Made by a program: the position numbers and the translations under genes
Part shown: positions 1,839 through 55,139 of the stretch, in pieces
How positions within the stretch are numbered: the stretch's first letter is position 1
Layout: every line of letters begins with the position of its first letter
Notes under the pieces: generated by a model
What the model was told of the DNA's origin: nothing
The model's input: the letters and a program-made list of their open reading frames with translations, nothing else
Database searches by the model: none
Sequence record: MN850574.1
Strand: one strand, 5' to 3'
Source: Escherichia phage kaaroe
Length of the DNA: 64,000 bases

Positions 1839-2270
1839 ATGGTTTATCCAACCCCTAGTAAGATTTACATTGACGATACTCATTTTCTTGTTGAAATTAT
1901 GGGTATCAAGTTTAGTGGTAATGTTAAAATTGTAGAATGGGAATTGCACGGTCAATCTGTAACCGATTATGACCATTATATCCCTTTCGGTGGCGATGAT
2001 AACTTTGTTTCATTCGACCATGAAGGTTACATGAACTTTGAGCAAGACGATGTACCTTTGTATCTGGCAATGATGGATATTCCTACTAAAACAGAATATA
2101 CAGAGGGTGATTGCGATTGTTGCGGATACTACAGCGTAACAGATATTAAGCTGCTATCCGGTAAAGAACTTTACAAAGAGGATCATTTCGGAAACTGCAA
2201 TTTTCCGTGTGATTGGCAAGAATTTTTCGAACTGGTAGAGATTGAGCGAACTTATGTGAGGAAGGGATAA
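1839..2270 (+). CDS. hypothetical Cys-rich protein
   Basis: ORF with GAGGATTATATAATG start context; CDCCGYY and CNFPCDW motifs. Confidence 0.5.
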   Translation: MVYPTPSKIYIDDTHFLVEIMGIKFSGNVKIVEWELHGQSVTDYDHYIPFGGDDNFVSFDHEGYMNFEQDDVPLYLAMMDIPTKTEYTEGDCDCCGYYSVTDIKLLSGKELYKEDHFGNCNFPCDWQEFFELVEIERTYVRKG

Positions 2271-3082
2271 TGAAGAAAGCATTAGGTTTAATTCCCTATA
2301 CTGGCAATAAGGAAAAGTTATTGCCGGGTGTTAGTAAGTATTTCCCTAAGCACTATAACCGCTTTGTTGATGCCTTTTGTGGCGGCTTGAGCGTGTCTCT
2401 GTACGTAGAAGGGGATGTGCTGGCTAATGACTATGATCACCGCTTAATTGAAGCGTACAAAGCGATTGACGAGTGTCCTGATCCGGTTTCTACGATCAAG
2501 CGGATTATTGCCGAGAATGATTTGTCTCGTGATGATAAAGATGCTTACATGGCATTCCGTAAGAAGTATAATGAGAATCCAGATCCGCTATCTCTGTTTG
2601 TTCTGATTCAGCACAGTTTTAGCAACATTAACCGTCATAACAGGAAGGGCGAATTTAATGCTAATTTTGGTCGCCGGACTTTTAACGAAAACGCGGTAGA
2701 GCGTGTCCTGAATTTTAAGGAAGAAAACAAAGACGGTCGAATCAGTTTTACGTCTGGTCGTTATGACGAGATCGAGATCTTGCCAGGTGATTTCGTTTAT
2801 TTGGACCCGCCGTACCTTATCACTTCTGCGGAATATAATAAGTTCTGGAGTGACGAGGAAGAGATTAAATTCTATCAGTGGGTAGAATCTATTATGGCGC
2901 GTGGTTTTCAGTTTGGTATAAGTAATGTCACGCATCATAAGGGAAAGGCAAATGATCATCTTCTTGACTTTATCAAGCGGAATGATTTAAACTGCGTCTT
3001 GTTGAATAAGACCTATTGCCTAGATCGTTCAGGTGGCAAGTCTTCTGATACGCAAGAAGTTTATGTAACTAACGTAGATTGA
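2270..3082 (+). CDS. dam: DNA adenine methyltransferase Dam
   Basis: N-terminal YTGNKxKLLP..FVDxFCGGLSVSL and DPPY motif; colinear with recalled T4 Dam. Confidence 0.85.
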   Translation: MKKALGLIPYTGNKEKLLPGVSKYFPKHYNRFVDAFCGGLSVSLYVEGDVLANDYDHRLIEAYKAIDECPDPVSTIKRIIAENDLSRDDKDAYMAFRKKYNENPDPLSLFVLIQHSFSNINRHNRKGEFNANFGRRTFNENAVERVLNFKEENKDGRISFTSGRYDEIEILPGDFVYLDPPYLITSAEYNKFWSDEEEIKFYQWVESIMARGFQFGISNVTHHKGKANDHLLDFIKRNDLNCVLLNKTYCLDRSGGKSSDTQEVYVTNVD

Positions 3083-13141: not shown

Positions 13142-13429
13142 ATGTTAGTACACAATGCAATCGCACACATGGTTTATTCTCGATTTGGGCGCATGGAAGA
13201 AATCAATATTACCGACGCAGATTTAGATCTGATGCAAGTCGAAGGCCAGACATATCTGAAAAATAACGGCGTGAATATCGGTAAAGCGCGTGTGCGTGAA
13301 TTGTTGGTTGAATATATTCTCTCTGAATTTGGCATTAGTGCTTTCGGTGTGAAAGAGATTGCACCTAAGCGCGAAATTTCTGATAAAATGATCAAGAAAT
13401 GCCAGAAAGAACGACGTAAGGGTTTCTAA
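13142..13429 (+). CDS. hypothetical protein
   Basis: GAGTGAGGAATATATTATG start context. Confidence 0.5.
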   Translation: MLVHNAIAHMVYSRFGRMEEINITDADLDLMQVEGQTYLKNNGVNIGKARVRELLVEYILSEFGISAFGVKEIAPKREISDKMIKKCQKERRKGF

Positions 13430-14898
13430 TGAAGATTGAAACATTAATCGCATTGCCAGCGGCGGGGAAAACTGATGCTATACTTTCCCACGTCCTAGAG
13501 ACAAAAGAAAAAGCGGTTATTGCTTCGCCATCTCGTGTTTTAAGTGAACAATCTTACAATAAGTTTAAAAGAATGGGCGGTCGTGCTGTCTTGATTGATA
13601 GCACAAGACTAAGAAGCCTTAAGACAGTGCAAGCGTCGATAATGCAATCAGTTAAAGATGGTGCTGATGTGATATTCATTACACATACAGCGTTATCTAA
13701 TATGGAACGTTCAAAAATGTTTGGTGATTATGCTCTTTACATTGATGAAGTTCCTCAACTGGTTGAATTTAATGAGTATCCGTTTAAGTCTAATCTTGAA
13801 CTTATCACGAAGCATTGCGAACCAATCGCCGACGAATCGGAATGCCTACAGAACTTAGTTCTAAAAGACTCTGAGAAGGCCGCTATCAAAGAAAAGATAG
13901 AAAGTGCGAAGGATGGTACTGATATGATCGATTCTTCTCTTAGAGGGCTTTATGAGGCGTTATTAGAGAAGAAAATCAACGTTATGGTAAAACATAACGA
14001 AGGACACCGGAAGAATGGGTCGAAAATTGTTTTCTTGAACGATAACAAACACGGTACGTGGGGAGACTTTAAAAAGGTTACGATAGCATGTGCAAATCTC
14101 TTTGATACATATAGTGGGAAGTATCTACGATACTATGCAAATTGCGATTTTGTTCCGAGTGCGCTAGAATCCAGACTATATTTCAAAGAGTATAAAAATA
14201 CAGATAGAGTTAATATCATCCTTATGACGGACTCTGAACGATGGTCGCGTCACCAGTCAGAAACAAACAATACCTTTGAACGTCTTGTTGATATGGTTAA
14301 AAATGAATGTGGCGATGACTTCATTTATACCGTGAATCGGGACCGTGAAGCGTGTACAAATGGTATTGGTGAGCGGATACCTTACGGGTCTTATGGTCTT
14401 AACTCTTACATTCATCATAAAAATGTTGCTGTGATGTTCAGCTTTAACCCTCAACGATGGGAGATTGATATTTTAAAAGGTCTTGCTAATAGTTGTGATC
14501 TCCCGACAAACGAGTTTTTGAAAGCGCGTCATGTGTCTGATTATCTGGAACCAGCATTTCAATTATGTTTGCGTTGTAACCTGAGAGACAACGAGAGCAA
14601 GGAGAATGTTAATCTATATGTTCCTGATTGGGCGTTGGTGGATTATCTAAAAACGTTTCTGCCTAATGCCAATGTAATAACAGATCGAATGATTCCGCTA
14701 GAATGTGGTGAACGTAAAGGGCGAAAATCATTTAAAAAGATGTTCGACTTTAACGAGCAAGAGAATGCAAGATTTAACGGATTTAAGTACCGCATGAAGA
14801 AAAAAGGAAAAACTCTTGATCCGTCTGACGGCGAATCTGTAGAGATGGTTAGAGTGTGGATAACTAAGCAAAGAAAGTATAATGGTAATGGGGAATAG
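13429..14898 (+). CDS. putative P-loop NTPase/helicase-like protein
   Basis: Walker A-like LPAAGKTD near N-terminus and Walker B-like LYIDEVP; no T4 counterpart recognised. Confidence 0.45.
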   Translation: MKIETLIALPAAGKTDAILSHVLETKEKAVIASPSRVLSEQSYNKFKRMGGRAVLIDSTRLRSLKTVQASIMQSVKDGADVIFITHTALSNMERSKMFGDYALYIDEVPQLVEFNEYPFKSNLELITKHCEPIADESECLQNLVLKDSEKAAIKEKIESAKDGTDMIDSSLRGLYEALLEKKINVMVKHNEGHRKNGSKIVFLNDNKHGTWGDFKKVTIACANLFDTYSGKYLRYYANCDFVPSALESRLYFKEYKNTDRVNIILMTDSERWSRHQSETNNTFERLVDMVKNECGDDFIYTVNRDREACTNGIGERIPYGSYGLNSYIHHKNVAVMFSFNPQRWEIDILKGLANSCDLPTNEFLKARHVSDYLEPAFQLCLRCNLRDNESKENVNLYVPDWALVDYLKTFLPNANVITDRMIPLECGERKGRKSFKKMFDFNEQENARFNGFKYRMKKKGKTLDPSDGESVEMVRVWITKQRKYNGNGE

Positions 14899-14938: not shown

Positions 14939-15472
14939 GTGTCTGATTATGTAAACAATAAAGAGCTTTACGAAGAAATTTGCCGTTGGAAACAACAAAT
15001 TGCAGCAGAAGGTCGGCAAGTTCCAATGAGCGATCAAATCGGCCTAGCAATTATGCAAATCTCTAAAAATCTATCACGTCGTTTTAACTTTTCTGGTTAT
15101 AGTCAAACGTGGCGCGAAGAAATGATCGACGACGGAATCGAAGCGGCGGTCAAGGGTTTGATTAATTTTGACGAGACAAAGTATAAAAATCCTCATGCTT
15201 ACATCACGCAAGCGTGCTTTAATGCTTTTGTACAGCGCATTAAAAAAGAGAGAACAGCGACAGCCGCAAAATACAAATATTTTGTGCATCATGTATATGA
15301 CGAACGCGACGCTGATATGTGCCAGATTGCTGATGAGGCATTCATACAGGACATTTACGATAAAATCAACAACTACGAGGAATCGGTCAATAAACCGAAA
15401 GCGCCAAAGGTTGAAGATGTATTGACCGAGGAATTGCCTAGCTTGGACCAATTTTATGAGATTGAAAATTAA
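14939..15472 (+). CDS. 55: late-transcription sigma factor gp55
   Basis: [49 protein letters not shown] closely matches recalled T4 gp55; GTG start. Confidence 0.9.
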
Positions 15473-15689
15473 CATTTCCCGTTTGCTGGAAGAAGCAGAG
15501 TTTGAAACTGACCTTGTGCCGTATTTCGCCAAATTATTTTTGAGAGATTGCGGCGTTCCGGTGATTATCGATCCGTGCAATATCAAATCACCGGATCTTG
15601 AGGTCTTTACGGGTACAATCTCACATAGCTATAATGTATCAGAAGATGAATTTTCTTTAATAATTGATTATATCCCAGAGGTAAAATAA
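15456..15689 (+). CDS. hypothetical protein
   Basis: ORF with start overlapping end of gene 55. Confidence 0.35.
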
Positions 15690-15690
15690 T

Positions 15691-15978
15691 ATGACTTGCA
15701 ATGAACAGCATGACCAGATTGCAGTGAATGAAGTAGACAAAGTACAAGCAGAACTAGAGGCTAAAGCCGCTAAGAAAGCGGAAAAGATCTTGCGTAAGAA
15801 CTCGCGAGAGATTGCACGCCTTAAGCGGTGGGCTGAACAAGCTATCATCGATGATAACCGTGATGCGTATATCTACGCTATCGGAAAGTTACGTGATATC
15901 TACAAACAGCCACACACGCCAGAACTGCTTTCTGCTATGTGGATTAGTACACGGCAAACGGTATTAAGTATGCTGTAA
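15691..15978 (+). CDS. hypothetical protein
   Basis: ORF with GAGG RBS. Confidence 0.45.
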   Translation: MTCNEQHDQIAVNEVDKVQAELEAKAAKKAEKILRKNSREIARLKRWAEQAIIDDNRDAYIYAIGKLRDIYKQPHTPELLSAMWISTRQTVLSML

Positions 15979-16000
15979 TGGCTTTATAGGGGAGACTCTG

Positions 16001-16026
16001 AAAGGGGTTTCCCTTTTTATTTTTCT
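16001..16026 (+). terminator. putative intrinsic terminator
   Basis: AAAGGGgtttCCCTTT followed by T-rich run. Confidence 0.45.
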
Positions 16027-16068
16027 GTGATATAGTGAGAGCATCGAAAACGAAGAGAGGAAGAGACT

Positions 16069-17094
16069 ATGAAAATTTTGCTTTTAGGTGATCTGCATAC
16101 TGGTATCGGTGGCGATGATCCGTGGGTGCATGAGTATATTCTTGATACCATCAAGAAGGCGGTTGAATACTCCAAAGAGCATAATATTAAGACATGGATT
16201 CAAACAGGGGATTGGTTTGATTGCCGAAAAGCAATTACCCATGAAACCATGAAATTTAACCGTACTAAGGTCATCCCATTACTGGAAGAGGCTGGAATTA
16301 CTTGTTATATCACGGTCGGGAACCATGATATGTTTAAACGAAACAAGATCCAGCCTAACGCACCGCGTGAAGTGTTAAGCCAGTATGATTGCATTAAGGT
16401 TATCGATAAACCGGAAACAGTTACCTTTGATGGTGTATCATTTGATCTGTTCCCGTGGTTTTGTGATGACAATAAATCAGAGATTTTAGAGTTTATTCAA
16501 AACTCATTCAGCGAATATTGTGTAGGCCATTGGGAATTGTCCGGTTACTATTTCTATAAAGGGCTAAAATCCGAAGGTTATAGCGCGGACTTCCTCAAGA
16601 AATACCGTGAAGTGTTTTCCGGTCATTTTCATACTATCAGCGATGGCGGTAATGTAACGTATATCGGTACACCATACACACTAACGGCGGGTGACGAAAA
16701 CGATCCGCGTGGGTTTTGGGTATTCGATACCGATACACACAAAAAAGAGTTTATCCAGAATGACAAAACTTATCATGTGCGTATCACTTACCCGTCAGAT
16801 GATAAAATCGATGTAGAACGCTTTAAGGGGCTTAGTGTGCGTCTTATTGCAACGGTTGCTGATAATGGGTTAACTAAGTTAGAAAGCGCGTTAGAGGCCG
16901 TTGTACACAAGCTAAAAGTGGTCCATAAACTGGAGAGTAGCGCATCACAGGAAACAGGTGTTATTGAAGTTAAAAGCACTATTCAGATGGTATATGAATA
17001 TCTGGAAGAACAAAACCTAGAACCGGAAGAACTTGCGGCGGTCAAGCGTATTTCTGATGAACTTTTAGCCGAGGTAAATAGCGCAAAAAGTTAG
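16069..17094 (+). CDS. 47: recombination endonuclease subunit gp47 (Mre11-like)
   Basis: MKILLLGDLH..GDWFD..VGNHD phosphoesterase motifs; position before gene 46. Confidence 0.9.
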   Translation: MKILLLGDLHTGIGGDDPWVHEYILDTIKKAVEYSKEHNIKTWIQTGDWFDCRKAITHETMKFNRTKVIPLLEEAGITCYITVGNHDMFKRNKIQPNAPREVLSQYDCIKVIDKPETVTFDGVSFDLFPWFCDDNKSEILEFIQNSFSEYCVGHWELSGYYFYKGLKSEGYSADFLKKYREVFSGHFHTISDGGNVTYIGTPYTLTAGDENDPRGFWVFDTDTHKKEFIQNDKTYHVRITYPSDDKIDVERFKGLSVRLIATVADNGLTKLESALEAVVHKLKVVHKLESSASQETGVIEVKSTIQMVYEYLEEQNLEPEELAAVKRISDELLAEVNSAKS

Positions 17095-23891: not shown

Positions 23892-23913
23892 GATACTGAT
23901 GGGATAGGGGTAT

Positions 23914-23941
23914 TGACAAACTAAGTCGATTCCCCTATAAT
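23914..23941 (+). promoter_or_regulatory. sigma70-type early promoter
   Basis: TTGACA 23914-23919, 16-nt spacer, TATAAT 23936-23941. Confidence 0.55.
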
Positions 23942-23973
23942 GAGTGTCTTTCGTAAGTGAAGGAGTTTATATT

Positions 23974-26652
23974 ATGTATTTTCTGTCATGTGAGCGAGTA
24001 GGTGATAAGATCTACGAGCGTTATATTGATGATGCTGGACAAGAACAAGAGCGTTACGTTGAATATACGCCAACTTTATTTCATCATGCCGCGCCTGGTA
24101 TGGTTACGAATTATAAAGATATCTATGGCAAGCCTTGCATTGCTAAAAAATTCCCCTCTATGAACGAGGCCAACAAATGGCGTAAAAAGATGGGAGAAAT
24201 GGGGCAAGAGGCGCTAGGGATGGATGATTTTATCATCTCCTATCTGTCTGATACGTATAAAGGCGAGATTCGATATGACCGAAATAAAATCCGTGTAGCA
24301 TGGGTTGATATCGAGGTCACTGCCCCAGAATTTCCTAAACCAGAAGAAGCGAAATATCCTATCGATGCAATTACGCATTATGATTCCGTACATGATCGTT
24401 TCTTTGTATTTGATTTGAAAGGAAAAAACGGTGAAATCTGGGAATCTAGCAAGTCTATTCTTCGACCTGATATTGTAGAGCGCGTTGTTTATAACGTCTA
24501 TGACACAGAAGATGAATTGCTGTTAGAATACATCCGATTCTTTGAGGAAAACCGACCCGTTGGTTTCACTGGCTGGAACACAGAAACATTCGATATTCCA
24601 TATATCATTAAACGTATCAGTAATAAGTTCGGAAGTAGAACCGCTAACCGTCTAAGCCCGTGCGGTAAGATTAAATCCCGAATCTCACAGGATGATTTTG
24701 GCAACGAGCGTGAAGCATTTACGATCATGGGGATCGAAAGCCTTGATTATATTGACCTGTACAAGAAATTTAGCTTTACGACTCAACCAACATATGCATT
24801 AGATTATGTTGCTGAATATGAGACAGGAATCGGTAAGGTTGATTATGATGGTCCGTTAAAGAAATTGCGTGATGACAACCATCAACTTTACATCGATTAT
24901 AACATCGGCGACGTTGATCGTGTTCTGGCGATTGATAAAAAGCGTGGATTTATCGATCTGGTGTATAGTCTATGTTTCTATGCAAAGATTAAATTTAACC
25001 ATGTTTATAACCCGATGAAAGTGTGGGATGCTATTATCTTCGGATCTCTGAAAGCTGAGGGTAAAGTAGTACCGGAAAATAAGATACAGCCTAAGCAGAC
25101 GTATCCAGGCGCATTCGTAAAAGAACCTGTGCCGAATGCTTACCGTTGGATGATGAGCTTTGACTTAACAAGTCTGTACCCATCTATTATTCGACAGGTT
25201 AATATTTCGCCTGAAACAATCGCTGGATCTTTTGATGCTGCACCGATGCACGAGTATATCAATAAAACTGCACCACGTCCGAGTGATGAGTATTCTTGCT
25301 CGCCTAACGGATGGATGTATAGAAAAGATATTCACGGTATCGTACCGATTGAGATTAAAAAGGTATTCGATCAGCGTAAGCAGTACAAAAACATGATGTT
25401 GGCATGTGATCGCAATGCTGAACTCTGTAAAGCGATTCTACACGATGAAAATCATGTTTATGGAGGAACCATTAACTATAGCGTTGAAGTGCGTCACGAC
25501 TTTGATGAAGCGTTTAAATCGATGCTTTCTGAATTAAGTAAAGATGCCTTAGAGAAATTGCTGGAAGAATGTAAAGACGAGTCGATCTTGTGCAATACAA
25601 ACCAGCTTTCTCGTAAAGTTTTGATCAACTCCCTTTATGGTGCGTTGGGGAATCCTAAATTCCGTTTTTATGATCTCCGTAACGCTAGTGCGATCACCTT
25701 GTTTGGTCAGCTTGCAATTCAGTGGATTGAGCGTAAGATTAACGAATACTTAAACGAGCTTTGTGGAACAACCGATTTTGCATATGTTCGTTATTGTGAT
25801 ACTGACTCCGTTTATGTGCTGGTTAACAATGTTGTTGATAAGGTTGGCGGGGAAGACCGTTTCGACGATACCGAAAAACTTGTTGACTTCCTTGATAATT
25901 TCGGTAAACATCGAATGGAACCTATTATCGACAAGGGATATCGCGAGTTATGCGAGTACATGAACAACTATGAGCACTTGATGTTTATGGACCGTGAGGC
26001 AATTGCTGGTCCTCCATTGAAATCTGCGGGTATCGGTGGATTCTGGACTGGTAAAAAGCGTTATGCTCTTAATGTTTGGGATATGGAAGGAACGCGCTTT
26101 GCTGAACCTAAGCTAAAAATCATGGGCTTGGAAACGCAACGTAGCTCCACCCCTAAAGCATGTCAGAAATCACTGAAAGAATGTATTCGCCGTATGTTGC
26201 AGGAAGGTGAAGAGTCATTGCAGGAATACTACGGTATTTTTGAGCAAGAATTTAGAAAACTTGACTATCTTGATGTTGCTGCGGTATCATCTGCAAACAA
26301 CCTACAGAAATACAGCGATTCAAACGGGTATCCGATTAAGGGTTGTCCGTATGCGGTTAAGAGTGTATTGTGTTATAATCGTAATGCTCGAAAATTCGGA
26401 CTAGATCCGATTCGTGAAGGCGAGAAGGTTATGATTGTACCGCTGAAAGATCGAAATCCGTTTGGAGAAATCTGTTTTGGTTGGTTGTCCGGTACTCGTA
26501 TTCCTCCAGAAATTGAATCAGAGGTGTTAAAGTGGTTAGACTGGCCTTTGTTGTTTAATAAGACTTTCGTCAAACCACTGGAGAACATTACCACGGCTGC
26601 AAAGCTGCAATATGAAAAAGTGGCATCTCTTACAGACCTGTTTGACATTTAA
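23974..26652 (+). CDS. 43: DNA polymerase gp43 (family B)
   Basis: Exonuclease and polymerase motifs (DIE, YNIGDVD, SLYPSII, KILINSLYGALG, YCDTDS) colinear with recalled T4 gp43. Confidence 0.95.
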   Translation: MYFLSCERVGDKIYERYIDDAGQEQERYVEYTPTLFHHAAPGMVTNYKDIYGKPCIAKKFPSMNEANKWRKKMGEMGQEALGMDDFIISYLSDTYKGEIRYDRNKIRVAWVDIEVTAPEFPKPEEAKYPIDAITHYDSVHDRFFVFDLKGKNGEIWESSKSILRPDIVERVVYNVYDTEDELLLEYIRFFEENRPVGFTGWNTETFDIPYIIKRISNKFGSRTANRLSPCGKIKSRISQDDFGNEREAFTIMGIESLDYIDLYKKFSFTTQPTYALDYVAEYETGIGKVDYDGPLKKLRDDNHQLYIDYNIGDVDRVLAIDKKRGFIDLVYSLCFYAKIKFNHVYNPMKVWDAIIFGSLKAEGKVVPENKIQPKQTYPGAFVKEPVPNAYRWMMSFDLTSLYPSIIRQVNISPETIAGSFDAAPMHEYINKTAPRPSDEYSCSPNGWMYRKDIHGIVPIEIKKVFDQRKQYKNMMLACDRNAELCKAILHDENHVYGGTINYSVEVRHDFDEAFKSMLSELSKDALEKLLEECKDESILCNTNQLSRKVLINSLYGALGNPKFRFYDLRNASAITLFGQLAIQWIERKINEYLNELCGTTDFAYVRYCDTDSVYVLVNNVVDKVGGEDRFDDTEKLVDFLDNFGKHRMEPIIDKGYRELCEYMNNYEHLMFMDREAIAGPPLKSAGIGGFWTGKKRYALNVWDMEGTRFAEPKLKIMGLETQRSSTPKACQKSLKECIRRMLQEGEESLQEYYGIFEQEFRKLDYLDVAAVSSANNLQKYSDSNGYPIKGCPYAVKSVLCYNRNARKFGLDPIREGEKVMIVPLKDRNPFGEICFGWLSGTRIPPEIESEVLKWLDWPLLFNKTFVKPLENITTAAKLQYEKVASLTDLFDI

Positions 26653-26668
26653 GATAAAGTGTGTATAA
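26641..26668 (+). promoter_or_regulatory. sigma70-type early promoter followed by leader hairpin
   Basis: TTGACA 26641-26646, 16-nt spacer, TATAAT 26663-26668; GGCGGGT/ACCCGCC hairpin at 26669-26694. Confidence 0.5.
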
Positions 26669-26713
26669 TGGCGGGTGTTGGGTGACGATACCCGCCAACG
26701 TGAGAAATATACT

Positions 26714-26902
26714 ATGAGAGAAATTGAAAAGATTAAACGTGAACGTGAGGAAGGCATAGAGCATTTCAAGAAAGTTCACGGAAATCACAGCAACGAAGTA
26801 TTTGTGACGATCGATGTTGATGCGATGAAAAAGTTAATTCAAGAGCACTACAAAGATCGAATAACAATGAAGCAATTAAAGTATTACGGATTAACTGAAT
26901 AG
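26714..26902 (+). CDS. hypothetical small protein
   Basis: GAGAAATATACTATG start; only ORF between 43 and uvsX. Confidence 0.4.
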   Translation: MREIEKIKREREEGIEHFKKVHGNHSNEVFVTIDVDAMKKLIQEHYKDRITMKQLKYYGLTE

Positions 26903-26913
26903 AGGTATTAATA

Positions 26914-27984
26914 ATGTCTGTACTGGAAAAACTGAAAAAGAACTCTACCCTGAAAACTACTGCGGTACTGTCTAAATCCAGCTTCTTTAACGAAAAAACA
27001 AATACTCGCACTAAGATCCCGATGCTGAATATTGCGTTTTCAGGTGATCTTAAAAAAGGCTTTCAATCTGGTCTGATTTTCTTTGCTGGTCCGTCTAAGC
27101 ACTTTAAATCAAACATGGGATTAACTTGTGTTAGTGCATACATGAAACAGAATCCTGATGCGGCGTGTTTGTTCTTTGATTCTGAGTTCGGTATTACACC
27201 CGCTTATCTTGAATCTATGGGTGTAGATCCTGATCGCGTGGTGCATGTTCCAATCAAGAACATCGAAGAACTTAAATTTGAAATCATGAACCAGCTTGAG
27301 CAAATTACCCGTGAAGATAAAGTGATCATCTTTATTGACTCAATCGGTAACTTAGCAAGTAAAAAAGAAGTTGAAGACGCGATTAATGAGAAATCTGCAC
27401 AGGATATGACGCGAGCTAAAGCACTTAAAGGCTTGTTCCGTATGGTGACGCCATATCTGACTATGAATGATATCCCGTGCATCGCTATTAACCACACTTA
27501 CGAAACACAAGAAATGTTTAGTAAGACCGTTATGTCCGGCGGTACGGGCGCGATGTATTCAGCCAATGAAGTTTTCATTATTGGTCGTCGTCAGCAGAAA
27601 GAAGGAACCGAAATTACTGGTTATGATTTTATCCTGAATGCGGAAAAATCACGAACCGTTAAAGAAAAATCTAAGTTCCCGATTAGCGTAACATTTAGCG
27701 GTGGCATCGATCCTTATTCCGGTTTGCTGGAGTTGGCTGTAGAGTTAGGTTGGGTAGTGAAACCGTCAAACGGCTGGTATTCTCGTTCAATCCTGAATAC
27801 TGAGACCGGAGAGATGGAAACCGAAGAACGCAAGTTCCGTGCTAAAGAAACCAATAGCATTGAGTTCTGGAAACCGCTTCTGACAAACGATAAGTTTAAC
27901 GAAGCAATCAACGATCATTATAAGCTGGGGCAAGTGATCAGCGACGAAGCAGTTGACAAAGAAATCGAAGATATGTTAGCATAA
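26914..27984 (+). CDS. uvsX: recombinase UvsX (RecA-like)
   Basis: KIPMLNIAFSG..AGPSKHFKSN Walker A-like region and FIDSIGNLASKKE; colinear with recalled T4 UvsX. Confidence 0.95.
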   Translation: MSVLEKLKKNSTLKTTAVLSKSSFFNEKTNTRTKIPMLNIAFSGDLKKGFQSGLIFFAGPSKHFKSNMGLTCVSAYMKQNPDAACLFFDSEFGITPAYLESMGVDPDRVVHVPIKNIEELKFEIMNQLEQITREDKVIIFIDSIGNLASKKEVEDAINEKSAQDMTRAKALKGLFRMVTPYLTMNDIPCIAINHTYETQEMFSKTVMSGGTGAMYSANEVFIIGRRQQKEGTEITGYDFILNAEKSRTVKEKSKFPISVTFSGGIDPYSGLLELAVELGWVVKPSNGWYSRSILNTETGEMETEERKFRAKETNSIEFWKPLLTNDKFNEAINDHYKLGQVISDEAVDKEIEDMLA

Positions 27985-27995
27985 CAATGGTAGTA

Positions 27996-28018
27996 AAGGG
28001 GCTACGTGCCCCTTTTTC
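27996..28018 (+). terminator. intrinsic terminator
   Basis: AAGGGGCtacgtGCCCCTT followed by TTTTC. Confidence 0.6.
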
Positions 28019-28039
28019 ATATCTAGAGAGGATTATATT

Positions 28040-28357
28040 ATGGATAAGAAACCAACAAGTTTAGAAGAAGCACACGGCTTGATTCAAGAAGCAATGAAGA
28101 CAGTTATTCAGGAATTGATAATTGTTGATGAAGAGGGAGAGCATCATATTGTCTATATTCATAATGTTGAATACGATCCAGACACTAAAGGTATTGTGGT
28201 CGACTACTCCACGCCGTCAGATCGTGATGTGGTATATCCACACGTCATTAAGGCGTTAACCGCGCAGATCAAAGAAGCAGAAGAAAAGTTGAAAAAAGAA
28301 ACTTTCTGGTATAAACTCAAGACCTTTGTTATGCGTGTAGTTGGGGGCTATGTATGA
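28040..28357 (+). CDS. hypothetical protein (occupies the position of gene 40 in T4)
   Basis: GAGAGGATTATATTATG start; assignment positional only. Confidence 0.4.
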   Translation: MDKKPTSLEEAHGLIQEAMKTVIQELIIVDEEGEHHIVYIHNVEYDPDTKGIVVDYSTPSDRDVVYPHVIKALTAQIKEAEEKLKKETFWYKLKTFVMRVVGGYV

Positions 28358-29766
28358 TTAAAACTATCTTTTCACAGTTGATTTACAATGGCGCATTCTT
28401 TACGAATGTATGGCCTCACCTTAAAGCGGACTACTTCACCGAAGACGAAGAAAAACTGATTTATAAGCTGATTAAAAAGCACGTAGACGAATATTCCAAC
28501 ATTCCTACGCCAACTGCATTACATATTGCTTTAGACAAGGAGAGAGGCAATCAGACAACATATGAAGGGGCTAAAACTCTTCTTGATTCGCTTGAGAATA
28601 CACCGGAAGACCTTGATTGGTTAATGAAGGAAACCGAAAAATTTATTCGTGACCGTGCCATGTATAATGCAATGTCACGGGCGCTAGAGATTCAGGCGAA
28701 CGCACAACTACCAAAAGAGAAACAGAATAAGAAATTGCCGAGTGAGGGTGCTATTCCTGAGATCATGCAGGAAGCACTATCAATTACGTTTGATTCTGAT
28801 GTAGGTCATGACTGGTTTAATGACTTTGAAAAACGATTCTTGCTATATCAGACTAAGGCGAATAAGATCCCGTTTAAGCTGCCGATGTTGAATAAAATCA
28901 CGAAAGGAGGGGCGGAAAGAAAAACGCTAAATGTGTTGCTTGCTGGTGTAAATGTTGGTAAATCGCTTGGATTATGTTCTCTTGCTGCGGATTATATGGA
29001 ATGTGGTTATGATGTATTGTATATCTCAATGGAGATGGCAGAGCATGTCGTAGCCAAACGTATCGACGCAAACTTGCTTGACATTACATTAGATGAATTG
29101 GATAATGGTAATGTTTCTTTTGCGGAATATTCCGCACGTATGAAGCGTGTTAAGAATAAGAAGATCGGAGATCGTCCGGTTGGAAAATTGATGATCAAGC
29201 AGTATCCGACTGGTGGCGCGAACTCCAATCACTTTGAGGCGTTAATGAATGAATTGCGACTCAAGAAACAGTTTAAACCTGATGTTGTGATTGTTGACTA
29301 TCTGGGGATTTGCGCATCGTCTCGCTTGCGTGTATACTCTGAAAATAGTTACACACTAGTTAAGGCGATTGCGGAAGAACTGCGAGGATTTTTTGTTAAG
29401 TGGGATGTTGTTGGTTGGACTGCGGCACAGACTACCCGCGCGGGTTGGGATGCTTCCGACCTTAACATGAGTGATACCGCTGAATCAGCAGGTCTTCCGG
29501 CTACTGCCGACTTTATGTTGGGTGTTATCGAAACCGAAGACCTGGCTAAAATGGGCGTCCAACTCATGAAGCAGATCAAGTCTCGTTACGGTGATAAGAA
29601 CTATTATTCACGGTTTAACGTTGGTGTGAAGAAAGGCAATCAGCGTTGGTATGAAGTACCAAACCAGATCGCAGATCAGGAGAATGCACAACTTAAACCA
29701 CAAAGCGCACAGCAAGCCGAGAAACGAGAAAAACTCGACGAGCTAGCAAATAACATGACTTTCTAA
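28354..29766 (+). CDS. 41: replicative DNA helicase gp41 (DnaB-like)
   Basis: LLAGVNVGKSLGLCSLAADY Walker A, IVDYLGIC, C-terminal IKSRYGDKN; colinear with recalled T4 gp41. Confidence 0.95.
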   Translation: MIKTIFSQLIYNGAFFTNVWPHLKADYFTEDEEKLIYKLIKKHVDEYSNIPTPTALHIALDKERGNQTTYEGAKTLLDSLENTPEDLDWLMKETEKFIRDRAMYNAMSRALEIQANAQLPKEKQNKKLPSEGAIPEIMQEALSITFDSDVGHDWFNDFEKRFLLYQTKANKIPFKLPMLNKITKGGAERKTLNVLLAGVNVGKSLGLCSLAADYMECGYDVLYISMEMAEHVVAKRIDANLLDITLDELDNGNVSFAEYSARMKRVKNKKIGDRPVGKLMIKQYPTGGANSNHFEALMNELRLKKQFKPDVVIVDYLGICASSRLRVYSENSYTLVKAIAEELRGFFVKWDVVGWTAAQTTRAGWDASDLNMSDTAESAGLPATADFMLGVIETEDLAKMGVQLMKQIKSRYGDKNYYSRFNVGVKKGNQRWYEVPNQIADQENAQLKPQSAQQAEKREKLDELANNMTF

Positions 29767-29772
29767 TAAAAT

Positions 29773-29788
29773 GCGCCCTGCGGGGCGC
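29773..29788 (+). other. GC-rich hairpin without T-run
   Basis: GCGCCCtgcgGGGCGC immediately after gene 41 stop. Confidence 0.35.
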
Positions 29789-29816
29789 TGGTGAATGATT
29801 TGATAGGAGATATAAC

Positions 29817-31393: not shown

Positions 31394-32422
31394 ATGATTT
31401 ACTACGCAGATTATGAAATAGCGGAAAAAGCCATATACGGCGAACGAAATTTTAAACGGTTGCATACTAGCTCATTTACGCTGGTCTGTAGTTGTCCGAT
31501 CTGCGGTGACTCAAAGAAAAATCATACTCAAGCGCGATTCCGTATCTATACCTATAAAGATAGTTTGCGTTGTGGTTGTTTCAACTGTAACTACAATCAG
31601 CCGTTAGGTGAATTTCTCAAACAGTATAAGCCGGACCTATTCAGGGAATGGCTTATGGAACGACGGAAGGAACAAGGCGACCACAAGAACACCACGTTCA
31701 AGCCACTGAAAAAGGTAGAAAAGCCGGAGATTAAGAAAGTGCAAACATTGCCTTTCTGCGAGAGATTAGATACTCTTCCGGCTAATCATCCTATAATAAA
31801 GTATGTCAGTGATCGTTGCATCCCTCACGATAAATGGGATCTTCTGTATTTCACGAGAGAATGGCAAAAGGTAGCAAATCACATTAAGGCTGATACTTTC
31901 AAGAATCCACAACCTGAACCGCGTTTAGTGATTCCTATCTTTAACCGAGAGAACAAGATAGAATCCATTCAGGGGCGAGCATTGAGAAAGGATTACGGAA
32001 AGACCAAATATATGACGATTAAAACTCATGAGTTAGCGAGTAAGGTCTATGGTCTTGAACGAGCCGATCCGAGTAAACCAGTGTATTTCTTAGAAGGTCC
32101 GATCGATTCATTGTTTATTGATAACGGGTGTGCAATTACTGGCGGTACTTTGGGATTAGATGAAATTCCTTTCCCTGATCAGCGAGTGTTTGTACTTGAT
32201 GCGGAACCACGGTCTGCCGATACAATGCACCGACTGGAAAAGTTTATCAATGCAGGGGAAAAGATTGTATTGTGGGACCGTTGCCCGTGGCATTCTAAAG
32301 ACGTTAACGCCATGATTCAAGACGAGGGCGCTACACGCGACCAGATCATGGAATATATCAAAGAGAACACCGTACAAGGTCTGATGGCTAAAATGCGGTT
32401 TATGAAATATTGTAAATTTTAA
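31394..32422 (+). CDS. 61: DNA primase gp61
   Basis: N-terminal zinc ribbon CPICGDSKKN..CFNCNY, EPRLVIPI, EGPIDSLFI and GATRDQIMEY colinear with recalled T4 gp61. Confidence 0.9.
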   Translation: MIYYADYEIAEKAIYGERNFKRLHTSSFTLVCSCPICGDSKKNHTQARFRIYTYKDSLRCGCFNCNYNQPLGEFLKQYKPDLFREWLMERRKEQGDHKNTTFKPLKKVEKPEIKKVQTLPFCERLDTLPANHPIIKYVSDRCIPHDKWDLLYFTREWQKVANHIKADTFKNPQPEPRLVIPIFNRENKIESIQGRALRKDYGKTKYMTIKTHELASKVYGLERADPSKPVYFLEGPIDSLFIDNGCAITGGTLGLDEIPFPDQRVFVLDAEPRSADTMHRLEKFINAGEKIVLWDRCPWHSKDVNAMIQDEGATRDQIMEYIKENTVQGLMAKMRFMKYCKF

Positions 32423-32436
32423 TTAATGAGGTGAAT

Positions 32437-32955
32437 ATGTCAGAATTTAATTCTTGTGCTGGTCTGGTTAACGAAAAAGATATTAACGCGGCTATCGCCG
32501 CATATCATCACGCGATTGCAGAAGGTAAAGATCCGTTTCAGGTGATGCTCGAAATGCAAACTGGTTTGCAGGTTGCATTATCCGAAAAATTTGATTGGGT
32601 CCCAAATCCAACTAAGCTAGAGACTTGCGGTGAAATGCTGGATTGGATGCAACGGATGGATGACGCTATCGCAGACGAAACACGAGAGCTTTACACATCG
32701 CTGGGTGGAATGTCCAATGGTAAAGATGCAAGTGCAATCTGGAAAATGTGGAAAAAGAACCACGGAGAAGCGCGAGCGCGTAAATTCTCTGAACTGTCAC
32801 CGGAAGATCAGCTTGAAGTGAAATTTGAATTTGTGGACGCGATCCACTTCATTCTGTCAAAGATGATCCCGCTGGGTATTGACGCTCAAGAACTCTTTAT
32901 TCTGTACTATCTGAAAAATGCTGAAAACTTCGCCCGTCAAGAACGCGGCTACTAA
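32437..32955 (+). CDS. 56: gp56-like dCTP pyrophosphatase (MazG-like all-alpha NTP pyrophosphatase)
   Basis: Position after gene 61 and C-terminal LSPEDQLEVKFEFVD..LYYLKNAENFARQ acidic-helix pattern; sequence match to T4 gp56 is from memory only. Confidence 0.5.
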   Translation: MSEFNSCAGLVNEKDINAAIAAYHHAIAEGKDPFQVMLEMQTGLQVALSEKFDWVPNPTKLETCGEMLDWMQRMDDAIADETRELYTSLGGMSNGKDASAIWKMWKKNHGEARARKFSELSPEDQLEVKFEFVDAIHFILSKMIPLGIDAQELFILYYLKNAENFARQERGY

Positions 32956-47027: not shown

Positions 47028-47198
47028 ATGAACTGGTATAAAATTTGGAAAAATCAGGTGGAGGCTTATCTAGGGTATAAGCCAACCGACGAAGAATTAC
47101 TTGAAGCAATGTACGAAGACGGCTTAAATCCGAAAGTAGCCGCGCAAGAATACGCGGAATGGGTGAAGGTCGAAGATAACCTAAAGGGGAAACTATGA
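47028..47198 (+). CDS. hypothetical small protein
   Basis: ATG 47028; 56 aa. Confidence 0.35.
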   Translation: MNWYKIWKNQVEAYLGYKPTDEELLEAMYEDGLNPKVAAQEYAEWVKVEDNLKGKL

Positions 47199-47395
47199 AG
47201 AAAATGATTGCGATTGCTTTGCTGGCTAGTGCATGTACGGTAAATGCTAATACCGCAGCGATGGTCGCGGCTGTAACTGCTGCAAATGCGTCTGTTATGG
47301 CATCGCAAGAGGCAGCACGCCAGCAAGCACAACAAGAAGCCCAGCGAAAAGCACATGAGGCGACGAAAAATTTCACGAAAATAACAAAAAACTAG
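47195..47395 (+). CDS. small secreted or lipoprotein-like protein
   Basis: N-terminal signal-like MKKMIAIALLASAC with possible lipobox Cys; Ala/Gln-rich mature part. Confidence 0.4.
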   Translation: MKKMIAIALLASACTVNANTAAMVAAVTAANASVMASQEAARQQAQQEAQRKAHEATKNFTKITKN

Positions 47396-47430
47396 TTGAC
47401 GCCAAAGGTCATCGGTAGTATTATACTCCC
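47396..47430 (+). promoter_or_regulatory. sigma70-type early promoter with degenerate hairpin
   Basis: TTGACG 47396-47401, 17-nt spacer, TATTAT 47419-47424; GGTAGTA..TACTCCC arms. Confidence 0.5.
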
Positions 47431-47458
47431 ATACCGAAACGAACTGGAGGAAATAAAA

Positions 47459-47701
47459 ATGGTTAAAGTTAATGTTATCGAAGTTGCACTGTACGACGCT
47501 GGGATCTTCCTGAATGAAAAAGAAGCTGCCGTCCTCGACGAACTGAAAACTGTTTTTGTTCCTGTAGTAGAAGACGTAGAAGCAATCAAAATCGCTTCTC
47601 GTAAACTGTCCCGCGAAGCATTCGACATGATTGATCCGGTTTTCAAAGTTATGCACGAATGCGCGGTTATGATGACCGAAGAAGAAGCGAAAAATTTCTA
47701 A
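47459..47701 (+). CDS. hypothetical protein
   Basis: GGAGG RBS, ATG 47459. Confidence 0.45.
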   Translation: MVKVNVIEVALYDAGIFLNEKEAAVLDELKTVFVPVVEDVEAIKIASRKLSREAFDMIDPVFKVMHECAVMMTEEEAKNF

Positions 47702-47708
47702 AAACTAG

Positions 47709-47743
47709 TTGACGTAAAGATAAGGGAGTAGTAACATACTCCC
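47709..47743 (+). promoter_or_regulatory. early promoter with GGGAGTA/TACTCCC hairpin (PeSL-like)
   Basis: TTGACG 47709-47714, 17-nt spacer, TAACAT 47732-47737; arms GGGAGTAG 47724-47731 and TACTCCC 47737-47743. Confidence 0.55.
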
Positions 47744-47766
47744 ATACCAAACGAAAGGAGAATCAC

Positions 47767-47976
47767 ATGAAATCTATCGAGCAAGTAGTAACAGAGTTTA
47801 TGAGCTACGAAGGAAACCGCATCTTTGGACGTTCTCAAGTTCGCGAGATCGTAGAAGAAGTTGCTGGAGAGTTTGCGGAATCTGGTCACATTATCACGCA
47901 AGAACGTAAAGAAGAAGCAGTAAACCAGATCATGGCTATACAGAAAATGCGTATTAATGCACGAGCGGGGGCTTAA
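47767..47976 (+). CDS. hypothetical protein
   Basis: AAGGAGAATCACATG start context. Confidence 0.45.
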   Translation: MKSIEQVVTEFMSYEGNRIFGRSQVREIVEEVAGEFAESGHIITQERKEEAVNQIMAIQKMRINARAGA

Positions 47977-47977
47977 A

Positions 47978-48277
47978 ATGAATTTTACCGATAAAGTTTT
48001 TGAAATTAGTCGCACTACTTCAATTAAAAATCTTAGGGCGGCTGCATTTATGGTTGATAAAGGGTTTAATATGGCATCGTCTGACGGTGTACCGTACTTT
48101 GCACCAACTTTCGTTGGCTGGATGACTGATCGTAAACGTGATTACACTAAAGCATATCCGCATATGGTACTTAGTAAAATTATCACTAAAGTGTATCCAC
48201 ATATGGTACTTAATGACGTTATCACGGACCACGATCACTTTACAAACTTTATTGTTTCCGGTGAATGGCGAAAATAA
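47978..48277 (+). CDS. hypothetical protein with internal 13-aa tandem repeat
   Basis: ATG 47978; YPHMVLSKIITKV / YPHMVLNDVITDH from a 39-bp direct DNA repeat. Confidence 0.45.
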   Translation: MNFTDKVFEISRTTSIKNLRAAAFMVDKGFNMASSDGVPYFAPTFVGWMTDRKRDYTKAYPHMVLSKIITKVYPHMVLNDVITDHDHFTNFIVSGEWRK

Positions 48278-52376: not shown

Positions 52377-55139
52377 TTAATTCTTTTTAAGTTCCGCTAG
52401 TTCAGCTTTAACGGCATTCAATTCTTCGCTCATTTCCTGAAACGCCTTAATTAAAAGAGCGTTGACAGCAGAGTTAGAAATTGTTAAGATCTCTTCTGGC
52501 TTATCGGGATCGCCGATGTTAGAAGTTGTTACTGCTTCCGGTAATTCTTTTTCAAGATCCTGAGCAATAATACCAACTTCATGAGCAATGACAGTACGGT
52601 CGGTTAAAGATTTAACCTTGTCATAGGTGTATACCGTCAAGCGATTAACTTTATCAGTGGCATTCTCCTTATACTCTTCCTTGTTGATTTTAAGGCGAGC
52701 ATCAGAGCGAATGTAAACGTCGTTAAAGTTACCATTGCGTCCAGCTTGGAAATCGCCGTTTTTATAGAAGGTAGTATTAGATTCAACACCAGAACCTTTA
52801 ACATGAACTCGCCATGAACCTTCATTAAGAAGCATACCCAACGAGAATGTTACTGCACCTTGAACATAACGTTGCTTGATCAAAGGAACATATGTAGACG
52901 CATCACCACGGTCTAAACGTTGGAAAATAGGTGCTTTGACGTTATCATCATGTTGAGATGCAAAAGAACCAGCACCCGCAGAACCAGAATCTATAGTAAT
53001 GACGCTAGCGCCGCGTTGAATAGCATTACCAAAATTCAGACTACCGCCTACGTTAGCATCGCTTCCGCTATAGAAAGAACCTGCAACAGAGAACTTAACC
53101 GGACCAGTTCCACCCGCAGTACGTTCGGTATACCAATGATAACTTGTTGCATCCGTACATTCAAAAACTTGTTTTCGTGATTCATTACCCCATGTATGGA
53201 GACTAAATTGCGAAGAAGAACCACGGTTAGCATGGAATGTAATTTCGCCAGATTCTACACGCACAAATCCTTTAAATCGCGCAGTAATTTCACCGGTTGC
53301 CATTTTACGTTCAGTTGTGAAGTGTGCACCGCTATTGTCTTCAAACTGCAAAATGTTATCACGGGCGTTATTGCTATCACCCCAATGGTTGATTTTAAAG
53401 AAATCACGAGATCCTAATCGTCCACTAGAGAAATGAAGGAAACCTTTTTCTACATAAACATCACCCGTAAAACGAGCGGCTTTGCTTGCACGTTCTAACG
53501 TTAATGCAGCTTCGTTACCGTCACCGCCTAATTGAACGTTACCGGAAGTCAAATCGTAAATGAATGGTCGGTTGCCGTTCCACCCACCAAAACGATCATT
53601 TTCGGCAGTAGAAAGAAGATAAACTTTAGTGCCGTCATTACGCCAGAATGCACCATAATTACCAAAGATCATACGGTATGCATCAGAATTGGCAGCTACA
53701 TATTGACCATTAGTGTATACAATTTTGGTTGCACCTGCGCTTAAAGATACTTGACCACTTGCTTCTAGCTTAACAAAGTTTTTACCTTCGTCACTATACC
53801 ATTGAAAATCGTTGGTTTCTGTAGAACCAAAACCAAACCAGCCTTGACGTTTATTAGCCCCGTCTCGCTGATCCATATATTCAAAATAGTTACTACAACC
53901 AGTAGGACGCCACATACGAATCGCGTTATTGCCTTGCAGATGAAGTCTATTGACAAATAAACCATCACTACCAACAATTTTTAATACTTCTTTTTGGTCG
54001 GTGGAACCAGTAGCCAAACGATACACATCACCTTGAACAGTTTCATGCCATATTGTTTCCGCCGCACGACTGCGGAATTTACGCATATATTTTTTATTGT
54101 TGTCTGGTACGTTATTAAGGCTCACAATATCATAGGTTGCTTGTGAGTTATTATCAAACATCAACGTTCCGGCTTTGTTTTCTGTGTTGAACATCGTAAT
54201 AACACGAGCATCAAATTTAGTTCCGGTTGCTGGTGCAGTCGCCGAAAATTCAGGAACATCATAAACAGTCAATGCGACGTCAACAGTTTTTCCAAACTCT
54301 ACAATAACGTTATCGGTGTAACGACCATAGTTAACATAAATGTCATAGTTATCACCGGAAGTATTAATTGCAAATACTTCATGGACGTTCAAAGAATTTC
54401 GACGATATGCAGCAATAGTAACACCTTTAGGATTTCCATTCCCACCACGAATCACGATTTCAAGGAAATCCACCTGGTCGTAGGATTTAACATTAAATCC
54501 GTTTCCACCATAGATACGAATAAATGCCATTTTTCCTTGCTGGGGGATCATTGCGGTTGCAATCTTAAAGTAGCCACGAGTTGCGTCACCGGAAGGAACA
54601 GACATTTTAACGTTCTTAACAAACATACGGTCAATTTCTTGTTTGCTATAAACGTTCAATTCTCCTGGAGTTGGTTTATCACCTTCGTGATACATTTTAT
54701 AACTAAATGCTTTTTGACCTTCTCTATTATAGCCATAAGTTTCTACACGCGATCCAGTGTGCCCATACTGGAAAGTAAATCCTCGACCATGTTGGACACC
54801 GGAAGAGTGAGGAACGTTTAGCGTGAGTTCGAGAAGACCATCAAGACCATTGGTACGGAAAGCGCCAAAGTAGTTAAGATCTCTCGCTGTCTGATCTTCC
54901 AGATAGTTAGCGGTTTTACTTAAGATATAATTATTACCTTTAACCTTACCCGCCATTGTAACATCGCGGTCATAAACCGGAGGACAACTTAAATTGATAA
55001 TAGTACCGGAATCATTTTTAGTAAGAAGATATTGATCCGCAAGGTTGATTGCCAATTCCCCCGGATTCATCGTACTAGCATCAGGTTTACGACCTTTAGT
55101 GCTAGTGCGTTTAAATTGGATTCTGCTTAAATCTGCCAT
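52377..55139 (-). CDS. 37: long tail fiber distal subunit gp37 with C-terminal intramolecular chaperone (peptidase S74-like) domain
   Basis: N-terminal RIQFKR..PGELAINL and internal AGAGSFASQ..DASTYVPLIKQRYVQG match recalled T4 gp37; C-terminal SDARLK..GIIAQDLEKELPEAV matches the S74 chaperone signature. Confidence 0.9.
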   Translation of the reverse strand: MADLSRIQFKRTSTKGRKPDASTMNPGELAINLADQYLLTKNDSGTIINLSCPPVYDRDVTMAGKVKGNNYILSKTANYLEDQTARDLNYFGAFRTNGLDGLLELTLNVPHSSGVQHGRGFTFQYGHTGSRVETYGYNREGQKAFSYKMYHEGDKPTPGELNVYSKQEIDRMFVKNVKMSVPSGDATRGYFKIATAMIPQQGKMAFIRIYGGNGFNVKSYDQVDFLEIVIRGGNGNPKGVTIAAYRRNSLNVHEVFAINTSGDNYDIYVNYGRYTDNVIVEFGKTVDVALTVYDVPEFSATAPATGTKFDARVITMFNTENKAGTLMFDNNSQATYDIVSLNNVPDNNKKYMRKFRSRAAETIWHETVQGDVYRLATGSTDQKEVLKIVGSDGLFVNRLHLQGNNAIRMWRPTGCSNYFEYMDQRDGANKRQGWFGFGSTETNDFQWYSDEGKNFVKLEASGQVSLSAGATKIVYTNGQYVAANSDAYRMIFGNYGAFWRNDGTKVYLLSTAENDRFGGWNGNRPFIYDLTSGNVQLGGDGNEAALTLERASKAARFTGDVYVEKGFLHFSSGRLGSRDFFKINHWGDSNNARDNILQFEDNSGAHFTTERKMATGEITARFKGFVRVESGEITFHANRGSSSQFSLHTWGNESRKQVFECTDATSYHWYTERTAGGTGPVKFSVAGSFYSGSDANVGGSLNFGNAIQRGASVITIDSGSAGAGSFASQHDDNVKAPIFQRLDRGDASTYVPLIKQRYVQGAVTFSLGMLLNEGSWRVHVKGSGVESNTTFYKNGDFQAGRNGNFNDVYIRSDARLKINKEEYKENATDKVNRLTVYTYDKVKSLTDRTVIAHEVGIIAQDLEKELPEAVTTSNIGDPDKPEEILTISNSAVNALLIKAFQEMSEELNAVKAELAELKKN

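Follow-up and report, generated by a model that had tools for sequence, protein, structure and literature searches.

Between the DNA polymerase gene 43 and the recombinase gene uvsX, phage T4 carries imm.1, imm, 42, b-gt and segA, much as the original prediction for this locus, made from the letters alone, had assumed in naming imm, 42 and beta-gt as the usual occupants of the interval. In the DNA analysed here (the window, 64 kb out of a genome of about 164 kb), the same interval measures only 261 bp (26653-26913), and a candidate gene 56 product is encoded further along, at 32437. The locus raises the question of whether the genes for hydroxymethylcytosine (hmC) lie elsewhere in the genome, or whether the phage uses unmodified cytosine while keeping gp56, a pairing that had been called an unusual combination.

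Nucleotide identity and gene-for-gene synteny with RB49 place the source of the window among the Krischvirus (RB49-like, 'pseudo-T-even') coliphages. A 5.9-kb query running from gene 43 to gene 41 finds 65 phage records; 59 of these reach at least 95% identity, almost all of them Krischvirus, and 58 Krischvirus-type records span the 43-41 region. The best matches to this query are FL38 (99.4%) and FL15 (99.3%), with RB49 at 98.5%. Over the whole window the alignment with RB49 stays at 96-99%, a few short stretches excepted. Following the RB49 annotation, the order on the plus strand is 55, a-gt.5, a-gt.4, 47, ..., 46, 45.2, rpbA, 45, 44, 62, regA and 43, continuing with ORF025c, uvsX, 40, 41, dc2, dc1, 61.1, ..., 61, 56, modB, srd and dda. 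The G+C content varies between 38 and 45% along the window and is about 40% for the genome; Krischvirus phages encode no tRNAs (PMC7552041). A dam methylase gene is placed by RB49 synteny at about 2270-3082. Sequence with no RB49 counterpart occurs at 47186-47687 and 47970-48275, in an ORFan-rich region with about 0.8 kb of differing sequence across 47186-48275, and at 52746-53284 and 53731-54005, within the divergent tips encoded by the distal tail-fibre gene 37.

The interval itself is tightly bounded. Gene 43 occupies 23944-26652 on the plus strand as the longest ORF (the start annotated in RB49 corresponds to about 23974) and ends with a TAA stop at 26650-26652, and uvsX, assigned by its ORF and by RB49 synteny, occupies 26914-27984 on the same strand. 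The expectation of a gap of about 260 bp without 42, imm or beta-gt was borne out: 258 of the 261 bases are shared with RB49, and tblastn with the T4 proteins returns nothing credible. The single 62-aa ORF foreseen in the gap is also present, as its sole gene, at 26714-26902 (plus strand). This ORFan is a homologue of RB49ORF025c, with 60 of 62 residues identical, and belongs to phrog_12120 (function not assigned; E = 2e-41); a Pfam search with it gives no match.

Upstream of the ORFan, a sigma-70 early promoter matching the consensus at 12 of 12 positions (TTGACA-16 nt-TATAAT, 26642-26669, plus strand) overlaps the end of gene 43; the same promoter is annotated in RB49 as a hypothetical early promoter. 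It is one of nine perfect TTGACA-N15-18-TATAAT sites in the window, where 0.14 would be expected. Immediately 3' of its -10 box lies a 12-bp GC-rich stem-loop (GGCGGG...CCCGCC, 26669-26697, plus strand) with a minimum free energy of -22.2 kcal/mol (z = -5.2), a stability equalled by none of 200 shuffled sequences. By arrangement, the promoter, stem-loop and ORFan look like a PeSL-type cassette. The study that describes PeSL cassettes in RB49 and phi1 (Arbiol et al. 2010, PMC2839356) gives them the layout seen in the window, a GGG/CCC stem-loop next to a consensus sigma-70 promoter with an ORFan after it. Its authors propose that the cassettes stop transcription arriving from upstream, initiate that of the genes downstream and promote the shuffling of ORFans; in the parts of the text searched, no mention of the 43-uvsX site by name (uvsX, ORF025) was found. 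RNA initiated at this promoter would have its 5' end within the 5' arm of the stem, so only transcripts reading through from gene 43 should be able to fold into the complete hairpin. A significant stem-loop follows only this one of the nine perfect promoters; the other eight have none downstream and are not claimed as PeSLs.

Gene 43 is intact in the window. Several other Krischviruses (kvi, MN850615; JSE, NC_012740; G2494; PTE-Eco09) match the region 23900-29800 in two pieces; their split gene 43 regions contain 0.5-1.1 kb of additional DNA and carry two annotated 'DNA polymerase' features, which suggests a mobile insertion splitting gene 43 in these phages.

The second junction at which T4 carries a glucosyltransferase gene is also compact. 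Gene 55, the late sigma factor (14939-15472, plus strand), and gene 47, a recombination nuclease subunit (16069-17094, plus strand), are both assigned by RB49 synteny, the former with near-identity, and alpha-gt is not found between them. It had been argued that the space from 15473 to 16068 leaves no room for alpha-gt, and indeed it is filled by two small genes on the plus strand that follow the RB49 annotation and have no assigned function: a 77-aa a-gt.5 homologue (15456-15689; phrog_1169, E = 3e-29; weak match to Pfam DUF5491) and a 95-aa a-gt.4 homologue (15691-15978; Pfam DUF2654, E = 1e-22; phrog_951). The T4 interval, by comparison, holds 47.1, a-gt, mobB and a-gt.2 to a-gt.5, of which only the a-gt.5 and a-gt.4 homologues have counterparts here. 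RB49 differs in having an HNH/AP2 homing-endonuclease-like ORF040c between a-gt.4 and 47 (locus L001, 3612-4166), which the window lacks at 15979-16068. On the other side of gene 55, between 55.2 and 55, a 489-aa ORF (13429-14898; RB49ORF044c, hypothetical) has a weak Pfam match to DEAD/DEAH helicases (27.3 bits against a cut-off of 26).

Compact junctions at the T4 positions would also be seen if 42, alpha-gt or beta-gt were present and had moved elsewhere in the genome. The window covers just 64 of about 164 kb, and hyperplastic regions of T4-like phages are described as shuffling genes in PMC2839356, two points that speak for relocation. With only the 64 kb at hand, the close relatives RB49 and FL38 were taken as proxies, and the search for homologs of gene 42 and of the glucosyltransferases beyond the window was run on them. 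T4 gp42, beta-gt, alpha-gt and imm give nothing credible by tblastn against the window (best E = 0.029), and tblastn against RB49 and FL38 for modification genes recovers only td. For greater reach, HMMs were built from 18 gp42-family proteins (including the distant thymidylate synthase (TS)-like enzymes of JS98- and RB69-type phages), 6 beta-glucosyltransferases and 12 imm proteins, the seeds of the latter two coming from related loci, and T4 alpha-gt was used as a single query. The search set was 3225 stop-to-stop ORFs, each 40 aa or longer, from the window, the whole of RB49, and FL38 positions 1-100000 and 155000-163833. The sole match to the gp42-family profile among the 3225 ORFs is again td (E = 3e-10), and neither beta-gt nor alpha-gt has any match in the window, RB49 or FL38 outside the window. 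The single imm match, at 29611-29742 (E = 0.019), is antisense inside gene 41 and was rejected as spurious. Among the unassigned ORFs of the window, the 10 largest show no glycosyltransferase or TS-like domain in Pfam searches, which give only a weak match to DEAD helicases and one to LprI.

The td product is a true thymidylate synthase (Pfam Thymidylat_synt, E = 1e-84). At the position of Asp179 in the 'FRNDY' motif of T4 gp42 it has the dUMP-type Asn, in 'PFNVASY'. This Asp/Asn choice is said, from work by Graves, Butler and Hardy in 1992, to set dCMP versus dUMP specificity. The Krischvirus td is 410 aa long (RB49 locus L005, 11870-13102; FL38 locus L007, 39598-40830, outside the window), and an insertion of about 130 aa divides its Pfam Thymidylat_synt match in two, with the catalytic Cys and the dUMP-type Asn kept.

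The RB49 annotation tells the same story, listing 56, cd, td, frd, denA, 1 and dam, and lacking 42, a-gt, b-gt, imm, alc and denB; cd, td, frd and gene 1 are retained in both RB49 and FL38. The genus as a whole is reported to lack 42 and the glucosyltransferase genes (PMC8056088, PMC12115623, PMC13390438), and the gene distribution given in PMC2993671 agrees. An hmC pathway encoded in another part of the genome thus finds no support in either proxy, where the profile and tblastn searches give td only, and relocation is largely refuted and extremely improbable.

The second half of the question concerns gp56. The gp56-like candidate at 32437 turns out to be a full-length gp56 orthologue of 172 aa (32437-32955, plus strand), with the gene 61 primase (31394-32422, plus strand) directly upstream; it is a predicted dCTPase by the RB49 annotation, 'gp56 dCTPase'. 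T4 gp56 aligns with it over its full length at 49% identity (BLASTP, E = 2e-60; tblastn span 32437-32952). The protein appears to be an all-alpha dimeric-dUTPase-type nucleotide pyrophosphatase: it matches Pfam PF08761 dUTPase_2 marginally (24.8 bits against a cut-off of 22.9) and phrog_173, NTP pyrophosphohydrolase (E = 5e-37). An AF2 model built with 58 homologues is all-helical with a pLDDT of 93.7, and its top Foldseek matches are DCTPP1, RS21-C6 and DR2231, pyrophosphatases of the MazG/DCTPP1 type. A profile search of PDB sequences aligns two blocks of gp56, EIVDIWHFILS and a C-terminal Y..KN..N..RQ..GY, with the dimeric dUTPase of C. jejuni (1W2Y), in which E74/D77 and HFILS align with the acidic motif block of the window protein. 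E74 and D77 of the C. jejuni enzyme were reportedly identified as metal ligands by Moroz et al. in 2004.

Since the rest of the specific T4 pathway is absent here, gene 56 might be a functionless, decaying relic of an hmC-using ancestor. The state of the gene makes this very unlikely. The ORF is intact and its product is 100% identical to the RB49 protein and to those of other Krischviruses; 58 homologues show no variation at D80, E81, E84, E127, E131, D134, H137 or F138; the catalytic residues are all those of T4 gp56. Homologues occur in 1424 phage records, those from metagenomes are 62-95% identical, and the gene is near-universal in T4-like phages, with gene 42 or without it (PMC2993671). 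The gp56 of the window looks catalytically intact and under constraint, as judged from these alignments.

Comparison of gp56 sequences from cytosine-DNA and gp42-bearing phages yielded about 20 separating columns, most of which proved phylogenetic after Aeromonas phage 31 and others were added and were rejected as markers. Position 141 alone still discriminates across about 80 loci. All homologues from loci with a detected gp42-family gene have Asn there, as do those of Gaprivervirus loci, whereas the residue is S, I, C or A in the Krischvirus, RB43-like and KP15-like proteins and in a single relative from a metagenome; no gp42-family gene is found beside uvsX in the Krischvirus/RB43/KP15 clade wherever the interval can be checked. 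The residue lies one helical turn past the invariant HF, on the helix that bears the ExxD motif, and Ser is likewise found there in the dUTP-specific enzyme of C. jejuni. The non-Asn141 sequences form a single clade, so they represent effectively one evolutionary event and offer a weak lead. An actinophage (Katzastrophic) homologue annotated as 'dUTPase' has Asn at 141; a check for a gp42-like gene in this phage found an ordinary td/DHFR pair and was uninformative. Position 141 may thus serve as a mutagenesis target and is not evidence on substrate.

Independent information on the state of the DNA comes from restriction-site content. When hexamer counts are compared with a maximal-order Markov expectation, the window proves to lack 11 of the 46 palindromic hexamers that can be tested, but only 5 of 1882 non-palindromic ones. 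The missing palindromes are AAGCTT, GAATTC, GGATCC, TCCGGA (28 expected), AGCGCT, AGTACT, CAGCTG, CCGCGG, CCATGG, GGTACC and AGGCCT; among the absent non-palindromic hexamers is CTGAAG (36 expected), the Eco57I/AcuI site. The RB49 genome lacks 16 of 57 palindromes, and 35 kb of T4 lacks none of 21. Within the same 20-kb region of single phages, Krischvirus genomes lack 3 of 23-24, RB43 lacks 3 of 25 and a CfP1-like phage 6 of 27; none is absent in any of eight phages with a gp42-type or distant TS-like gene, nor in a Gaprivervirus or KP15. Since unmodified bases need site purging, this pattern supports unmodified cytosine and adds sequence evidence for DNA that would lack base-modification protection; it likewise points to a long-term unmodified state, a further argument against relocated modification genes. 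A literature search for restriction-site avoidance in RB49 or Krischvirus found no published description.

GATC is frequent in the window, with 376 sites in 64 kb, and is not a depleted tetramer there; the observed/expected ratio of GATC across 35 kb of T4 is 0.34. Three VR7/VR20-type loci (L023, L030 and L056, probably Gaprivervirus) have imm as the only gene between 43 and uvsX, lack a gp42-family gene there, and keep Asn141 in gp56 without restriction-site purging. These features fit a published suspicion of an unidentified modification in such phages (PMC8056088).

Published work on the lineage points largely in the same direction. RB49 DNA is digested by HpaII and by NheI, both sensitive to cytosine modification, contains no hmC or ghmC and served as an unmodified T4-like control (Yaung et al. 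2014, PMC4041780), and TB34 has canonical cytosine by HPLC/MS, in a study that finds Krischvirus genomes to be without hmdCMP synthases, hodCMP synthases and glucosyltransferases (PMC13390438). The same study, from 2026, is also the source of an anomaly: DNA of phage SAP (OZ034687), which is 98.8% identical to the window, is described as containing 5-hmdC and alpha-gentiobiosyl-hmdC and as sensitive to BrxU, and the genes responsible were not found (PMC13390438). From this one could propose a cryptic, gp42-independent route to hmC in some Krischviruses, possibly including this one, with gp56 (dCTP removal) and gp1 (dNMP kinase) as shared steps. TB34 (OX001802), however, shares 99.96% identity with SAP but carries plain cytosine, no SNP between them being informative, and the modification profile of SAP equals that of seven Tequatrovirus phages of the same collection (PMC13390438). 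To this are added the unmodified DNA of RB49 (PMC4041780), the absence of glycosyltransferase and TS-like domains from the ten window ORFs scanned with Pfam, and heavy site avoidance that would be pointless if the DNA carried glucosylated hmC. A cryptic route is highly unlikely on these grounds. The Tequatrovirus profile of SAP, taken with the purging of sites in Krischvirus, raises the suspicion of a mixed or swapped stock, which would be the most likely source of the SAP modification. Extreme purging in the Krischvirus lineage may be a clean genomic marker of unprotected DNA, and as such bears on the 2026 claim.

Nor is the retention of gp56 by unmodified phages exceptional. Gene 42 occurs in just a subset of T4 relatives, and gene 56 in all those sequenced except Aeh1, 65, KVP40 and nt-1 (Petrov et al. 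2010, PMC2993671, Table 4). The RB43 and RB49 groups have homologues of DenA and of the dCTPase-dUTPase without modification genes, and their phages transduce (PMC8056088); a second source agrees that gp56 and DenA are kept in both groups without modification genes, and scores Krischvirus as dCTPase+, hmC-, denB-, denA+, ndd- and alc- (PMC12115623, Table 4). The absence of hmC genes together with unmodified cytosine and gp56 is in fact already known for RB49-type phages since the early 2000s. Of the original interpretation, the part that saw unmodified cytosine with gp56 kept stands, the placement of the genes elsewhere does not, and the 'unusual combination' is the documented norm in at least two genera (PMC2993671, PMC8056088, PMC12115623, and the layout of RB43). 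To this extent the result re-derives a documented RB49-type state from raw sequence, and as such matters little.

The explanation that very probably accounts for the locus as a whole is that of a Krischvirus without an hmC system, with ordinary cytosine and with a gp56 that most likely works mainly as a dUTPase/dUDPase. The lineage lacks gp42, the glucosyltransferases and imm, as the searches above show, and also alc and denB (PMC12115623); the missing hmC system leaves the 43-uvsX and 55-47 junctions compact. The phage would replicate with ordinary cytosine, a state shown by published experiments for RB49 and TB34 and supported here by the strong site purging, the counter-defence to be expected when DNA has no chemical protection. 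Its gp56 would act mainly as a dUTPase/dUDPase that keeps uracil out of DNA, and the dUMP it forms would feed the phage thymidylate synthase, beside dCMP deaminase and dihydrofolate reductase; it would have little or no activity as a dCTPase.

This division of activities draws on T4. T4 gp56 also hydrolyses dUTP and dUDP (Petrov 2010, PMC2993671). In T4, dCTPase activity without gp42 abolishes DNA synthesis (PMC6071114), from which it follows that the dCTPase of Krischvirus should be low or absent, and the T4 strains that make C-DNA carry am56 (PMC12115623), an amber mutation in gene 56 which indicates that a phage replicating with dCTP cannot have a dCTPase of T4 strength. Read most simply, Krischvirus gp56 would have dUTP and dUDP as its main substrates. 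Because a strong dCTPase is lethal to T4 when gp42 is missing, the gp56 of cytosine-DNA phages should differ functionally from T4 gp56.

That gp56 might instead be a dual dCTPase/dUTPase working at a tolerated level is a reasonable, though less likely, alternative. The enzyme would then drain dCTP and dCDP to dCMP, which Cd would convert to dUMP and Td to dTMP, biasing the pools towards dTTP, in keeping with the 40% G+C of the genome. Every catalytic residue is that of T4 gp56, and the retention of cd, td, frd and gene 1 in RB49 and FL38, like the base composition itself, is consistent with such a drain; the activity would nevertheless have to be much weaker than in T4, or regulated, given the block to T4 DNA synthesis that dCTPase causes without gp42 (PMC6071114).

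The window can also be set beside other known systems. T4 gp56 has the same length and the same replication-gene neighbourhood, and its ExxE and ExxD acidic motifs and HF are identical to those of the window protein; it works beside gp42 in T4, whereas the present phage has no gp42 and carries Ser141. RB43, a Pseudotevenvirus, also lacks gene 42; like the window it has 43 directly next to uvsX (with a gap of 79 bp) and the order 55-a-gt.5-a-gt.4-47, keeps gp56 and avoids restriction sites, but it belongs to another genus, and its gp56, at 51% identity, has Cys as residue 141. RB49 (AY343333 / NC_005066) and FL38 (PP400784) are the closest match: they share the gene order and the 261-bp 43-uvsX interval with ORF025c, their gp56 is identical to that of the window, and they are likewise without 42, a-gt, b-gt and imm, RB49 differing by small indels, by ORF040c and by the ORFan and tail-fibre stretches.
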